Shown: positions 11,557 through 57,334, counted from the first letter of the stretch. The stretch is 64,000 bases of DNA from a virus (IMGVR_UViG_3300029705_000039), one strand, 5' to 3'. Numbers and translations: made by a program. The notes: generated by a model not told the origin, from the letters alone.

Positions 11557-11647
11557 TGGGGATTGGTGTAATGGCAGCACGGCGGACTCTAAATCCGTGA
11601 GCCCCCTGAAGGCGTAAGTCAGGGTTCAAATCCCTGGTCCCCAGCCA
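11557..11647 (+). tRNA. amber-decoding tRNA (CTA), Gln-like
   Basis: GCGGA-CTCTAAA-TCCGT; U1-A72, G73, CCA; extended variable region. Confidence 0.88.
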
Positions 11648-18263: not shown

Positions 18264-18379
18264 TAGGCACATACAGCAAAACAGTAGTCCAATTGGGCCG
18301 GTAGCTCAGATGGTAAGAGCATTAGATTGATAATCTGAAGGTCGTTGGTTCGAGTCCAACCTGTTAAATATGTGTCTAG
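18264..18379 (+). ncRNA. CAGCAA module copy 5 enclosing a tRNA-Ile(GAT)-like body
   Basis: TAGGCACATA-CAGCAA ... TATGTGTCTAG; D, anticodon and T arms inside; no CCA. Confidence 0.7.
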
Positions 18380-18520
18380 CAAAACATAACACTTGAGGTT
18401 ATGTTGAGTAATGAAATAATTCCCCGTCCCAAGCCGCGGTGAATTATGGAACTCTAAGGGGGTTTTAGTGTAGAACCACAACTTGGGTAGGCTTAAATGC
18501 CGAAGGAAAAACACTTTTAT

Positions 18521-20697: not shown

Positions 20698-21252
20698 ATG
20701 TATTCGCAAGCATTGTCCGCGGGATGTATGTTAGGCTTTGCCGCTCTTCTTTCTTGCTGTGTTGAGAATCAAATTTTAGCGGCGTTATTCTTTTCAATAG
20801 GACTTTTGTATATACGAATAAGTAAATTTTATCTATATACAGGCCAAATTCAAAATCTAAAAGACCATTCTACTTCTTTAAAAGAATTAGGAATTGGCTT
20901 ATTTGGCAATATTAGCGGCGTTACGCTTTTCTTCTCTTTATTTTTCTTCCTTGATTTTCACGCGGCCGCAGATAAATATTTTGCTATTACTGCTGTAAAA
21001 TGGTCTTATCCTTGGTATCATTATATTGCTTCTAGTATGTGTTGCGGTATTTTGATGACAATTGCAACAAAAAAAGAAAGTCCTTTATGGTTAAGTAGTT
21101 TATGTGTAATGGCTTTTATTCTTGCTGGTTTTAATCATTGTGTTGCTGATTGGTTCTATGTTTTCGGAAGCATGAGCCCGTTAAAATATTTCTATTGGTC
21201 TTTAACTGTTATTGGTAATTTTCTTGGTGGTTATTTGGCCGCAACCAAATAA
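20698..21252 (+). CDS. formate/nitrite transporter (FNT) family protein
   Basis: AG..LG, LYTG, GN..G, FILAGFNHCVAD, GNFLGG. Confidence 0.85.
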   Translation: MYSQALSAGCMLGFAALLSCCVENQILAALFFSIGLLYIRISKFYLYTGQIQNLKDHSTSLKELGIGLFGNISGVTLFFSLFFFLDFHAAADKYFAITAVKWSYPWYHYIASSMCCGILMTIATKKESPLWLSSLCVMAFILAGFNHCVADWFYVFGSMSPLKYFYWSLTVIGNFLGGYLAATK

Positions 21253-21261
21253 CCCTTACTT

Positions 21262-21818
21262 CGGGGTGTAGCGCAGTTTGGCTAGCGCATTCGCTTTGGG
21301 AAAAGAGATTTTTGCTGATATAAAATGTTAGATAATACTCAACAAAAAGGAACTATTACTGAATTACACTGTATCTTAGATTTAACTAATTTGGGTTATC
21401 GGTGTTTAAAACCAGTAGATGAAAGTTCTAAATATGATATAGTTGTCGATTTAGGGCAAGGAAAATTTAAACGCATACAATGTAAAACTGCTTCTTGGGC
21501 TAATGATACAAAACAAGAGCATGTTGCGTTTCAAATTAATACTTGCAGTCAAACCACTAATACAAAAACGACTACTCGTCATAAATATTCTAAAGATGAT
21601 ATTGATTATTTTTACACTTGGTTTGAAGGTCAAGGATATTTAGTCTCCATTGAAGAAGCAACGGGAATTGGCTTTAGATGGCGGTATGAATATCCTGAAA
21701 CGAATCAGAAACAGGGAATTCATATCGCTAGTGAATATAAAATTGAGGAGGTTTTAAAGGCAATCTAAGATTTTCCTGGAGCGAAGGGTCGTGAGTTCAA
21801 ATCTCACCTCCCCGACCA
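21262..21818 (+). tRNA. tRNA-Pro(TGG) interrupted by a 479-nt insertion (about 21299-21777)
   Basis: 5' half CGGGGTG...TTCGCTTTG, 3' half GGAGCGAA...CTCCCCGACCA; rejoining gives loop TTTGGGA. Confidence 0.85.
21325..21768 (+). CDS. PD-(D/E)XK endonuclease (PDDEXK_5 / intron-associated type) inside tRNA-Pro
   Basis: KG.ITE...P.....YDIVVD...RIQCKT...Y...DIDYF. Confidence 0.8.
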   Translation: MLDNTQQKGTITELHCILDLTNLGYRCLKPVDESSKYDIVVDLGQGKFKRIQCKTASWANDTKQEHVAFQINTCSQTTNTKTTTRHKYSKDDIDYFYTWFEGQGYLVSIEEATGIGFRWRYEYPETNQKQGIHIASEYKIEEVLKAI

Positions 21819-21949
21819 ATTAAAATTTGACATTTTTCAAATTTTATAATATAATATATACATAAGGTAAGGAACTTAATCAAATGCTCTCACCTCACGC
21901 TACACGCACCTCCTTGGGCTTTGTTCTATTACTTCCTTACCTTTTATGA

Positions 21950-22026
21950 TGCGGAGTGGAGCAGTTGGTAGCTCGTTAGCCCCATAAGCTAAAGGTCGCA
22001 GGTTCGAGTCCTGCCTCTCGCACCCA
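21950..22026 (+). tRNA. initiator-like tRNA-Met(CAT), atypical
   Basis: resembles fMet D and T arms; shortened loop CCATAA and bulged acceptor. Confidence 0.65.
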
Positions 22027-22031
22027 ATAAT

Positions 22032-22205
22032 AATTACAACAAAAAGGTATGCTTAGAAGCAGCAATCCTCTAAGGAGTAGGTCAAGCACCATAAGTGCAA
22101 ATAAAGTAGTGTAATGTCGGGCTGAATCACAGTGGCATATGGCTATGAAGTGCTTGTGGGAAAATGTGAGTAATCTTTTGGCGTAATAGCACATTTGTTG
22201 TAATT
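22032..22205 (+). ncRNA. 23S rRNA L11-binding domain (H43-H44) mimic with about 100-nt insert
   Basis: GCTTAGAAGCAGC and GCGTAATAGC loops in rRNA order, closed by a perfect 12-bp stem. Confidence 0.8.
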
Positions 22206-23135: not shown

Positions 23136-23291
23136 AGCCGAGTAGCCAAGTGGAAAGGCACGGGACTTCGTAAAGTAGTGTAATTGGTAGCAATGTTTCC
23201 GGTTAGCGCGCAGGGGACGGTGTTGGTTCGAATCCAACCTTTACGGCCATGACTCCCGCATTCGCTGGTTCGAGCCCAGCCTCGGCTGCCA
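23136..23291 (+). tRNA. tRNA-Gln(TTG) split in its anticodon by a nested tRNA-like RNA
   Basis: CGGGA-CTT|insert|TGAC-TCCCG; acceptor AGCCGAG/CTCGGCT, GCCA. Confidence 0.85.
23169..23249 (+). ncRNA. nested tRNA-like RNA (81 nt) ending in GCCA
   Basis: CGTAAAG/CTTTACG acceptor, D loop TGGTA, T arm GTTGG-TTCGAAT-CCAAC, 12-nt non-canonical anticodon loop. Confidence 0.85.
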
Positions 23292-33382: not shown

Positions 33383-34088
33383 GCCATTACTTTAAATAAT
33401 GGTAATGTCTCTACTATTGACACCGCTTCAATAGAAAAAGCAGTTTCTAATTCAATTAATTCCAATTTTCGCGAAGCAAAAATTTCTTTAGAATTAGATA
33501 ACTCCTCTGATGAAGGTGGATATATTACTTGTTCCCCACAAAACTAAATAATAGGTCTCCGCATTATTGACCTTTATAAAAATGCCGTGTGCCGTTACGT
33601 TAAGACAGGGAGGCAGACCCGCCGCAAGAATCTGCTCGCTCATTGACAATCGTCAGGGCGTCAATCCGTAGAACTCTACTACGGGTCAGGAGTAATCCAG
33701 TTAAGTGAGGGATGGTAGCGTAGTTATCGTAGGGCCGCTGATAACCCAGAAGAGCAATCTTCTGGAAGGTAAAATTTTTTTACCTTTGCCGTAGGGATTT
33801 ATTATTTTATAAAAATTATCTTAATATAAACTCGTTGTCGTTCCGCTTCGCGGAACTCCGCACTTCGTTCTTGTGAAGATTGCTTCGTCTCGCACTGCGT
33901 GCTCAACGAACCAACTTCTACAAGAGAGTAAAAGATGAACGAAAAAATGTATATAATTATAAAGGGTTTAAGGATAAATTTGTCCGTAATCAAATTATTA
34001 TCGAGAAAACTTTTATCACAAAATAAATATACTTATTTACTTATAAAAGAGAGAAATCTCTCAAATTATTTTGGAGGATATTCTATAT

Positions 34089-34688
34089 ATGAATGATGGT
34101 TTTTTAACATTAGTTGAGGAGCAATCCACGTTAGACCCAGTAATGTATCAATATTTTAATCATTATAAAAATCATCGAACTATTATTTTTAATCGCGCAG
34201 TAGATGATAGTATTGTAGAGACTGTTATTTTACCGCTATTAGAGTTTGAAAATGATAGTAATATCGAGCCCGTCAAACTTATTCTATCTACACCTGGCGG
34301 CTCCGTAAGTGATGGGTTAATTTTATGTAATGTTATTGATAATTACAAAAAACCTTTAGAAATTTATGTGTATGGATATGCTTGTTCTATGGGCACAATT
34401 ATTTTATGCGCAGGAAATAAGAACCCAAATGTTAAGAAGTATTGCTATCCCTTTTCTTTCGGTCTTTTCCACGCTGGTTATTCGGCCGTAGAAGGTGAAA
34501 GTCTAAGTGTTGAGGACCAAATCGCTTTTAATAAGAAAACCGATAACACTATTCGTGATTATGTCGTAGAAAATACTAAAATTACCGCAGAAGAATATAA
34601 AGCAAATGAACGTCGTCAATGGTATCTGAGTGCCCAAGAAATGAAAGAAAAGGGACTTGTTGATATTATTATTGGCGGAGATGAATAA
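34089..34688 (+). CDS. clpP: ClpP-family protease
   Basis: LSTPGGSV, ACSMG, H, YLSAQE..EKGLVD. Confidence 0.85.
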   Translation: MNDGFLTLVEEQSTLDPVMYQYFNHYKNHRTIIFNRAVDDSIVETVILPLLEFENDSNIEPVKLILSTPGGSVSDGLILCNVIDNYKKPLEIYVYGYACSMGTIILCAGNKNPNVKKYCYPFSFGLFHAGYSAVEGESLSVEDQIAFNKKTDNTIRDYVVENTKITAEEYKANERRQWYLSAQEMKEKGLVDIIIGGDE

Positions 34689-55260: not shown

Positions 55261-56508
55261 ATGGAATATGTAATCAAACGTGATGGTTCTCAGGTCTTAT
55301 ATAATAAAGATAAAATTTATGAAGCTATTAATGCCGCGAATGAAGAATGTATTCTTAAAGAAGAAGGGTATTTAACATTAGAATCTCTCTATGATGCCTT
55401 AGAGGATATTGATAGTCGTTGCAACGACCATGTGTCTGATATTGGTGTAGAAGAAATTCAGAACATTGTTGAACGTGTATTAATGTCCTATGAACCTGAT
55501 GTTGCTCGTGCTTATATTCGCTATCGTTATATGAAAGAAGTCGCTCGTGAATATAAGGCAGACTTTTTTGAAGCGATTGGCGATAAACTCGCGGCTAAGA
55601 ATGTAGTCAACCAAAATGCCAACGTAGACGAGCATTCCTTCGGCGGCCGCGTAGGCGAAGCATCTGATGCTATGATGAAAGAGTATGCACTTAACTTCTG
55701 CATGTCCAAGATGGCGCGCGAAAATCATTTAAATAATGAAATTTATATTCATGACCTAAGTGCTTATGCAGTTGGGATGCACAATTGCCTTACTGTTCCT
55801 TTTGACCATCTACTTGAAAAAGGCTTCAATACTCGTCAAGTTGATATTCGTCCCGCTAATAGTGTAGATACTGCTTTCCAGTTAGTTGCTGTTATTTTCC
55901 AACTACAATCTCTAATGCAGTTTGGCGGCGTAAGTGCTTCTCATATTGACTGGACTATGGTACCTTATGTAAGAAAGAGTTTTAGAAAACATTGGAACAA
56001 TGGATTAAAATATTTAGCATTTTGGGAAGTAAAAGATGAAGACTATGAAACTGAAAATAAGCCCTTGGATGAATATCCCAATTTTGATGATTATCAAGAT
56101 ATTTATCGGTATGCTATGGAAATGACTGAAAAAGAACTATCCCAAGCCGCAGAAGGCTTATATCATAACCTCAATTCTCTCCAAAGCCGCAGCGGAAACC
56201 AGTTGCCCTTTACCTCCCTTAACTATGGAACTTGCACTCTTCCTGAAGGTCGCATGGTAATTAAGGCTCTACTTGAAGGCTCCATTAAAGGCGTAGGCAA
56301 GCATCATCGCACTCCTATCTTCCCTTGCGGTATTTTCCAAGTCGGCGAAGGAATCAACAAGCATCCTGGCGACCCTAATTATGATTTATTCCAGCTGGCA
56401 CTAAAATCAACTTCTTTACGTCTATATCCCAATTATGCTAATATTGATTGGTCTGGTAATGCAGGATATGATAAAAACGACCCAAAAACTTATTTCTCTA
56501 CCATGGGT
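55261..56508 (+). CDS. nrdD: anaerobic ribonucleoside-triphosphate reductase, exon 1
   Basis: ATP cone VIKRDG, IYIHDL, HNC, QLPFTS; ends ...STMG. Confidence 0.92.
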
Positions 56509-57334
56509 AAGTGCAAACTACAGCTCATGTAAAATCTTTTGAACCTCGCCCGAGGGTGTCTGCGTAAGCAGGCTAACGGTTAGGTCCCACGAGGATGAGA
56601 CCGTGCGAAGATTCGTTATAATATTCATCTCTGTGAGGTGAATATATGGAAGTTTATAAGATTACTAACCTAATAAATGATAAAGTTTATATTGGTTAGA
56701 CAATTCGACCTATTTAGTAGCGTTTTCATCGGCATATAAGCGATGCTATGAATAATATACTTGATACACATTTTGCAAGAGCAATAAGAAAATACGGTCC
56801 AGATAATTGGAAAATAGAAAGTATAGACATCGCTAAAACATAGGAAGAATTAAATCAAAAAGAACAGTATTGGATTAATTATTATAATTCTGTTATAGAT
56901 GGATATAATGAAACAAATGCCATTAGCAAGTGCGGTGGAAATACTTATCAATCTAAAACAGAAGAAGAAATGAAAATTATTAAGGAAAAGATACGAAAAA
57001 CTAAACTTGGTGGTAAAAATCCCATGGCACGAAAAATAAAAAGAACAAATATACAAACTGGAGAAACCGATATTTTTGAAACAGTTATATCTTGTGCCAA
57101 AGCTTGCGGGATACAAAATGGAAAAACATCAATTACCACCCGGCTAAATAAACAAATAACTTCTCCTTATAAAAATACTTGGACTTTTGAATATTATAAC
57201 GAATAACGTGTATCGACTATCCCTGATGAATGTAAGGGAGTAGGACAGGAGATAGGCACCTGTCCGAAGCGGAAGACTATCTTGACAAAGATAGAAGATA
57301 TAGTCAGTGCTGATGGCAACATCAGATAAACATG
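56509..57334 (+). mobile_element. group I intron in nrdD
   Basis: exon ends in U, intron ends in G; splicing restores TMG|CRT; P7-type CGACTA / GATATAGTC. Confidence 0.9.
56646..57206 (+). CDS. intron-encoded GIY-YIG homing endonuclease (4 TAG=Gln)
   Basis: MEVYKITNLINDKVYIG*T...GYN; NUMOD-like tail. Confidence 0.85.

Follow-up and report, generated by a model that had tools for sequence, protein, structure and literature searches.

Homing endonuclease genes are thought to survive inside other genes only within self-splicing introns or inteins. The introns of archaeal and eukaryal tRNA genes carry a bulge-helix-bulge (BHB) motif, are cut by EndA or Sen endonucleases and are rejoined by an RtcB or Trl1 ligase, and some archaeal ones bear homing endonuclease open reading frames (ORFs) or kink-turn (K-turn, box C/D) guides. 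Here we describe an element in a 64,000-nucleotide (nt) stretch of a phage genome (IMGVR_UViG_3300029705_000039), analysed at its full length and called the window below, where the anticodon loop of a proline tRNA gene is split by an endonuclease gene. The element is a member of a widespread, actively mobile, ribozyme-less family of inserts in phage tRNA genes, and we tentatively suggest that it is spliced in a protein-dependent manner.

The closest described system is the 655-nt group I intron in the tRNA-fMet gene of Synechocystis PCC 6803, which contains the 150-amino-acid (aa) ORF of I-Ssp6803I (PMC1995217, PMC3384342; PDB 2OST). Like this intron, the phage insert has a PF11645 nuclease with a D...QxK motif, a tRNA host gene, a position in the anticodon loop and homing mobility. 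The Synechocystis intron is self-splicing by means of a ribozyme of ~200 nt, however, whereas the phage insert has ~35 non-coding nt and no such core, and lacks both the terminal U of the 5′ exon and the conserved terminal G. With the protein-spliced introns of archaea and eukaryotes the insert shares the absence of a ribozyme, the pairing of anticodon with intron and the need for an RNA ligase if it is spliced, and with archaeal introns in particular the location of the ORF or K-turn in a terminal stem; the EndA fold itself derives from PD-(D/E)XK nucleases (PMC3424549). It differs from them in its junction, which lies at 36|37 rather than 37|38, and in its continuous helix with putative cuts 3 bp apart, where archaeal introns have two 3-nt bulges 4 bp apart. 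Furthermore, no EndA was found in the phage relatives searched, and both host and tRNA are bacterial in type, hence the label “archaeal-style” given to the insert in a preliminary description, made from the sequence alone, is not supported. Free-standing phage homing endonuclease genes, known for intronless homing and for “genes in pieces” created by their insertion, are similar in that relatives of the ORF also occur between tRNA genes in many phages and in moving by cleavage of the empty site, but the present insert lies inside a tRNA and has a covarying RNA stem which pairs exon bases right up to both junctions. A 2014 review knew phage introns from protein-coding genes only and from no tRNA gene (PMC3984707), tRNA introns go unmentioned in surveys of recoded gut phages rich in introns (PMC7886860; bioRxiv 2021.08.26.457843), and our literature searches found no description of such phage tRNA inserts.

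The split tRNA-Pro(UGG) gene occupies positions 21262–21818 on the plus strand, as do all features of the locus given here, and is of bacterial type (C1-G72, A73, encoded CCA). Its 5′ exon (21262–21299) comprises the acceptor and D arm, the 5′ strand of the anticodon stem (21290–21294) and loop nt 32–36 (UUUGG), with the anticodon U34 G35 G36 at 21297–21299. The 3′ exon (21779–21818) holds G37, A38, the 3′ strand of the stem (21781–21785), the variable loop, the T arm, the 3′ acceptor strand, A73 and CCA. Between nt 36 and 37 stands a 479-nt intervening sequence (21300–21778), composed of a 444-nt ORF and ~35 further nt. The gene was missed by standard ARAGORN and by Rfam, but is recovered by ARAGORN in intron mode, and its minimum free energy (MFE) fold keeps the cloverleaf and lengthens the anticodon stem to ~15 bp (z = −4.2). 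The preliminary description had already placed a 479-nt insert in this anticodon loop, with paired ends that extend the anticodon stem, and both points are confirmed by the sequence, the intron-mode prediction and the fold. The non-coding flanks of the insert measure 25 nt (5′) and 10 nt (3′), against earlier figures of about 26 and 9 nt.

Relatives of the ORF were found on 5 IMG/VR contigs and 31 metagenome contigs (gut, rumen), at 59–85% identity, with two more at ~33%. Besides the window, 31 loci (referred to by L numbers) carry the insert in tRNA-Pro, 30 of which are spliceable in silico, and the insert is 476–494 nt long in 31 loci. The window alone leaves the junction register ambiguous between 35/36 and 38/39, as previously described, but the relatives fix it. 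The 3′ junction reads UAGA in L022 and L033, which excludes 35|36, and the 5′ junction reads UUUGGA in L026 and L034, which excludes 37|38 and 38|39 provided that the universal G37 is kept; the junction is therefore 36|37. In-silico splicing at this position gave an ARAGORN tRNA-Pro in 31/31 loci (29 UGG, 2 CGG). Comparison of Enterococcus phage EFP01 with the intron-less gene of phage EFDG1 also places an insert unambiguously at 36|37.

Both ends of the insert are built into a conserved RNA helix, which we tallied over the 22 unique intron ends of the tRNA-Pro loci. In 65/66 cells the anticodon forms canonical pairs with the final three bases of the intron (34:−1 in 21/22, 35:−2 and 36:−3 in 22/22 each); in the window these are C, U and G at 21776–21778, giving U.G, G.U and G-C pairs. 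Next comes helix P-a, in which +1 to +4 are canonically paired to −4 to −7 throughout (88/88 cells) and each of the four pairs has compensatory variants (for example GUUUA/UAAAC and AGAC/GUCU). Its window strands are GAAAA (21300–21304) and UUUUC (21771–21775), and the following pair, equivalent to the 3b.3n position of K-turns, is often non-canonical. At the kink, a G.A pair is invariant (22/22) and the adjacent pair is A.G in 12 ends and C.A in 10, the two positions co-varying without exception. Beyond lie a mini-helix of G-C and A-U, a UAA bulge facing a UUU bulge, and helix P-b, which is canonical throughout its first four pairs (88/88 cells), compensatory changes and G.U wobbles included.

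In the window the 5′ side of the kink spans 21305–21311, with G21305 and A21306 as the predicted sheared partners of A21770 and G21769, G21307 and A21308 pairing with C21765 and U21764, and the UUU bulge at 21309–21311. P-b joins UUGCU (21312–21316) to GGCAA (21759–21763), is extended to 9–12 bp in some relatives, and encloses the ORF. Over its 3′ end (21759–21778) the intron thus reads from the P-b strand through UC (21764–21765), the bulged UAA (21766–21768, which is also the stop codon), G A (21769–21770) and the P-a strand to the anticodon-pairing CUG. Anticodon stem, pairs 32.38 and 33.37, the 3-bp anticodon:intron helix and 5–7 bp of P-a form one continuous helix, which the kink terminates after 7–8 stacked pairs counted from the 5′ junction. 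Within it the 5′ and 3′ junctions are offset by 3 bp, one on each strand, and cutting at both would thus leave 3-nt 3′ overhangs.

The constraint on the helix is at the RNA level. Terminal inverted repeats of DNA were considered and ruled out, because the G.U wobbles in P-a, P-b and the anticodon pairing would be intolerable in such repeats and indicate an RNA-level stem. The UCUAAGA of the 3′ side is kept even in L029 and L030, whose ORFs stop earlier, so the constraint is on the RNA and not on the stop codon. In its C-G closed helix, 3-nt UAA bulge, tandem G.A/A.G pairs, variable 3b.3n position and following regular helix the kink resembles the K-turn known from box C/D RNAs, rRNA and Firmicute riboswitches. 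The K-turn sequence pattern, however, fits 12/22 unique Pro-clade ends, the other 10/22 having A.C in place of the first G.A, and as this variant is atypical of K-turns we call the structure K-turn-like only.

The same rule governs other phage tRNAs. Nuclease lineages 33–57% identical split tRNA-Asn (Enterococcus phage EFP01, L065–L067), tRNA-Ala (L049, L055), tRNA-Thr (L056, L057, L060), tRNA-Ile (L059), tRNA-Ser (L069) and tRNA-Val (complete genome G001, which also bears a tRNA-Pro insert), and the insert lies at 36|37 in every tRNA type. The last three intron bases complement the anticodon in each case (Pro CUG, Asn AGC, Ala GCA/GUA, Thr ACA/AUA, Ile AUC, Ser AGC, Val GUA); with the seven contexts taken as independent, a generous assumption given that five of them share one scaffold lineage, the chance of this is ~0.375^21. 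The non-Pro clades have a P-a of 6–7 bp, a hinge at 7–8 pairs from the junction and then a covarying P-b. The hinge itself differs, being CUGA/UGAUG with a U.U pair in the Asn clades, as in a box C/D K-turn, and in the Ala/Thr/Ile/Ser/Val clade, unlike a K-turn, only a 1×2 internal loop inside a conserved GCAUUG; an L7Ae-type protein is also absent from the relatives searched. No base outside the helices is common to the clades and the junction bases vary too, which speaks for a helix recognised by its shape and against a ribozyme common to them all.

Several further features were noted at these loci. The second insert of G001 is of the other scaffold type, in tRNA-Val(UAC) (contig 33936–34492, minus strand; L071), and this genome also contains several fragments of the nuclease gene. 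The last ~30 nt of the EFP01 insert (L001 1890–1925) resemble the D-arm/anticodon-stem part of its own tRNA 5′ half, which hints at an origin of the 3′ end from a duplicated piece of tRNA. ROOL RNA (RF03087, 265 bits) lies ~450 nt downstream of the split tRNA-Asn of EFP01 (L001 2427–3013), and a further copy adjoins the split tRNA-Ala of L055 (L055 1–224). From the 3′ end of its split tRNA-Asn onwards, L065 has a sub-threshold match (773–840) to a hepatitis delta virus (HDV)-like ribozyme (RF02682, 38.4 bits, gathering score 44), a placement resembling that of the tRNA-trailing ribozymes of recoded gut phages.

The ORF (21325–21768, 147 aa plus stop) matches PF11645 PDDEXK_5 (E = 6.9e-22, 78.4 bits against a cut-off of 26.1). 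Its sole match among solved structures is 2OST, I-Ssp6803I (E = 8e-6), with the YD...QxK motif aligned, and catalytic D38, Q52 and K54 are invariant among 51 diverse relatives. These matches agree with the earlier reading of the 444-nt frame as a PD-(D/E)XK nuclease and, on sequence similarity, assign it to the I-Ssp6803I family of homing endonucleases. Bonocora and Shub are said to have found in 2001 that the DNA cut of I-Ssp6803I leaves a 3-nt 3′ overhang around the anticodon. From the 36|37 insertion site and the mobility of the element we infer that the phage nuclease cleaves the intron-less tRNA gene at the anticodon. As a separate observation, the intron ORF of L034 has TGA at the codon for invariant Trp58, and a UCA tRNA lies close by (L034 652–748); this phage seems to decode TGA as tryptophan, mobile element included.

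That the element is mobile, as the preliminary description held, is supported by presence and absence among close relatives and by the same intron in diverged alleles. EFP01 carries a 463-nt insert in tRNA-Asn, while ~29 other Schiekvirus phages have an uninterrupted gene, and its exons match those of EFDG1, the sole sister aligned. Among tRNA-Pro loci, introns that are 0–0.2% divergent reside in alleles which differ at 7–14 of 77 nt (L004/L015/L003, L002/L011), allele identity breaking off 6 nt upstream of the 5′ junction (nt 31) and 3 nt downstream of the 3′ junction (nt 39). Conversely, L002 and L007 have identical exons with introns 14% apart. Near-identical introns in diverged alleles imply that movement is precise and frequent, with essentially no co-conversion. 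The same anticodon arm without an insert was found on 45 IMG/VR contigs, none of them a close relative of the window phage.

The nuclease is also found outside introns. Free-standing relatives occur in the tRNA arrays of L027, L050–L052, Kuttervirus and Vibrio phage River4, therefore the nuclease family is independent of the intron location. In L044 (352–893) the nuclease gene is preceded by a tRNA-Pro 5′ remnant cut off precisely after nt 36 and followed by a complete tRNA-Pro that begins within the final codons of the ORF; the hairpin is absent, and the arrangement looks like a “bring your own replacement tRNA” solution. The River4 ORF (L099 486–956) abuts a tRNA-Pro as in L044. In L068 (~270–760) the element and its hairpin are flanked only by a tRNA-Thr anticodon stem-loop (UCUGC UUUGU ... 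ACAAA GCAGA).

For the fate of the host gene, both readings offered in the preliminary description, a protein-spliced intron and a homing element that inactivated the tRNA, are still the leading ones. Protein-dependent splicing is the answer we place first, by a narrow margin, while granting it somewhat less than an even chance. In this model the kinked helix would be the processing substrate, recognised by its shape rather than its sequence. A protein endonuclease would cut both junctions to leave 3-nt 3′ overhangs, the geometry attributed to I-Ssp6803I on DNA, the exon ends would be held in position by the tRNA body, and a phage or host RNA ligase would rejoin G36 to G37, restoring tRNA-Pro. 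The endonuclease could then be translated from either the released intron or the unspliced RNA. On DNA, its target would be the anticodon of an intron-less tRNA-Pro gene, and repair of the cut would copy in the element with almost no co-conversion.

Several observations are consistent with splicing. Across 26 unique alleles the exon stems are paired in 540/546 cells, and 19/21 pairs show double changes. The split gene is the only tRNA-Pro of two complete relatives, and the only tRNA-Val of G001 is split in the same manner. Lineages with the hairpin lack a spare tRNA, and the hairpin-less lineage (L044) carries one. An RNA ligase of the Rnl family is encoded on 8/8 IMG/VR contigs with such inserts and RtcB is encoded by EFP01, so that all nine carrier genomes or contigs examined, a set which does not include the whole genome of the window phage, have a ligase; none lies inside the 64-kb window. 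Judged by its form, the junction-exact, anticodon-tailored helix with its hinge at a fixed distance looks like a cleavage substrate.

A number of points weigh against splicing. To our knowledge, protein-dependent tRNA splicing has not been described in bacteria or phages. No spliced RNA was seen, the material being metatranscriptome contigs, which cannot show tRNA joints; two bovine metatranscriptomes yielded intron-containing contigs of a ~95% identical relative, and apparent exon joints in metatranscriptomes were rejected as other tRNA genes of the community. There is no candidate cutter besides the intron's own DNase. EndA (PF01974) is absent from four phage relatives that are 91–100% complete, controls being positive in archaea only, and the same four encode no RNase III, L7Ae or RtcB. 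The ligase association may reflect merely large phages with tRNA arrays. Moreover, Rnl needs 3′-OH and 5′-phosphate ends and RtcB needs 2′,3′-cyclic phosphate and 5′-OH ends, therefore one common cutter does not fit all carriers. Since the element hops without co-conversion and may have arrived recently, exon integrity is weak evidence of function. The tRNA of the window has a U6.U67 mismatch, L031 has C33, and L068 keeps the hairpin in the absence of a tRNA body.

Other enzymes and routes were considered and set aside. RNase III cuts with a 2-nt stagger, which would give an anticodon loop of 6 or 8 nt, and the relatives encode none. RNase P and RNase Z acting on P-a as an acceptor-stem mimic would require a 3′ cut 3 nt past the helix instead of 1, and the “leader” would be base-paired. 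Excision at the DNA level by microhomology does not apply as direct repeats are absent at the Asn, Ala and Val junctions. A special case of protein splicing, which we regard as unlikely, is that the intron's own DNA homing endonuclease is also the RNA splicing endonuclease. The pre-tRNA helix would then mimic the DNA target, with a paired anticodon triplet and scissile bonds 3 bp apart, one on either strand, so that the same protein would free the intron by cutting the RNA at both of its ends, leaving an RNA ligase of phage or host to rejoin the tRNA.

The strongest alternative to protein-dependent splicing, and one we consider almost as likely, is an unspliced selfish cassette that sits at its enzyme's own cut site and silences a dispensable phage tRNA, with the helix serving the cassette. 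The helix would close the broken loop in a nuclease-resistant manner, and the tRNA body, its 5′ end trimmed by RNase P and its 3′ end bearing CCA, would be a scaffold or processing handle for the endonuclease mRNA. Rampant mobility into diverged alleles means that intact exons need no selection after insertion, yet few exons have decayed among the 26 unique alleles despite a mean intron divergence of 23%. A stable scaffold would need a fully paired junction, but a hairpin that merely stabilises could use the intron ends alone, whereas the pairing reaches both junctions and is tailored to seven anticodons; a hinge at a fixed distance across unrelated stem sequences resembles a measuring device for cleavage. 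The free-standing lineages and the replacement tRNA beside a truncated remnant in L044, which show that the nuclease family need not be an intron, count towards the cassette, but a spare tRNA occurs only where the hairpin is missing, as expected if the hairpin renders the insert harmless. The incomplete tRNA sets of phages in any case, the hairpin and anticodon stem without a tRNA body in L068 and the lack of a splicing enzyme in the relatives searched also favour the unspliced cassette.

It is improbable, in our estimate, that the kinked stem, perhaps aided by the body of the tRNA or the start of the ORF, forms a novel small ribozyme that cuts and rejoins the RNA at both junctions. A conserved kinked stem could fold distal parts back onto the junctions, synonymous diversity is low at the first few sense codons of the ORF, and small ribozymes do accompany these tRNA arrays, as in the sub-threshold match of L065. 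A catalytic core should be conserved, however, and no non-helix nucleotide is shared between clades, which have GAGAUUU/UCUAAGA (Pro), A/CA with GCAUUG (Ala/Thr/Ile/Ser/Val) and CUGA/UGAUG (Asn). The junction bases vary, Rfam gave no match and only ~35 nt lie outside the ORF.

Known intron and ribozyme classes were searched for directly. Rfam showed no match of the tRNA insert to a group I, group II or small ribozyme at E ≤ 10 (window 21000–22100), no group I match anywhere in the window at the gathering threshold, and no intron or ribozyme family in 12 relatives of several clades at E ≤ 1. A ribozyme hidden within the ORF was also ruled out: over 24 non-redundant ORFs aligned by codon, diversity at synonymous sites stays close to expectation from end to end, and with these sites free to vary no RNA core of ~200 nt is superimposed on the ORF. 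The covariance search, the ~35 non-ORF nt and the synonymous profile together bear out the earlier statement that there is no room for a group I ribozyme. The last base of the 5′ exon is G36 (Pro) or C36 (Ala, Val) where group I introns require U, and the last intron base is G or A (Pro), C (Asn, Ile, Ser) or A (Ala, Thr, Val) where they require G. No BHB (two 3-nt bulges with a 4-bp helix between) was found in any register in the Pro, Ala or Asn clades, by MFE folding or hand pairing. Thus a canonical group I intron overlapping the ORF, suggested by the nuclease family being otherwise known from the 655-nt Synechocystis tRNA-fMet intron (PMC1995217), or a BHB intron of archaeal type with an EndA-like cutter, suggested by anticodon:intron pairing as in archaeal and eukaryal pre-tRNAs, is scarcely credible given no RF00028-type match, free synonymous sites and wrong junction bases in the one case, and no 3-nt bulges 4 bp apart and no EndA in the four near-complete to complete (91–100%) relatives in the other.

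Taken as a whole, the window is a replication and tRNA-array region, and its phage is a large one, sampled in an animal feces/gut metagenome. Encoded there are a Pol III-type DNA polymerase, gyrase A and B, a DnaB-like helicase, primase, RecJ, NrdD and PhoH, together with 24 standard tRNAs, one of them a CUA suppressor. A sigma-70-type promoter (TTGACA-17-TATAAT, 21827–21855, plus strand, 12/12 consensus positions) begins 9 nt past the split tRNA; it marks where the transcription unit with that gene ends, and it suggests a host with sigmaA/sigma-70-type promoters rather than Bacteroidota. The CUA (TAG-suppressor) tRNA at 11557–11647 has a long variable arm. A full-length drum RNA (Rfam RF02958, 75.8 bits) lies within the tRNA array at 18406–18519, and a tRNA-like stretch just upstream (18299–18363) matches model positions 5–66 only. 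At 23169–23249 a tRNA-like gene has an 8-nt anticodon loop (ARAGORN anticodon “agcg”; Rfam tRNA score of only 36 bits). The NrdD-like ORF (55261–56532) spans only positions 5–393 of 718 in the family profile, and the gene may be split, interrupted or recoded.

Five points are new: the 36|37 rule for seven anticodons, the complementarity of intron end and anticodon, the covariation counts for the K-turn-like hinge, the evidence that the element moves without co-conversion, and the ligase census. A large endonuclease gene family has settled in anticodon loops, in seven or more kinds of phage tRNA, with no ribozyme and with a purpose-built anticodon-pairing helix. As standard tRNA finders miss such split genes, current tRNA counts for gut and rumen phages are too low. 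A cultured carrier, EFP01, with ~29 insert-free sisters puts the question of splicing within reach of the bench. If the inserts are not spliced, selfish genes would be inactivating phage tRNAs widely, with the tRNA fold turned into a scaffold for their mRNA. If they are spliced, this would be a protein-based tRNA splicing pathway in bacteria or their viruses and a third route to phenotypic neutrality for selfish genes, with a bearing on the origin of archaeal and eukaryal tRNA splicing. Were the homing endonuclease itself to cut the RNA, bacterial viruses would possess a self-contained, protein-only splicing system, a living analogue of PD-(D/E)XK nucleases becoming the tRNA-splicing enzymes of archaea and eukaryotes.

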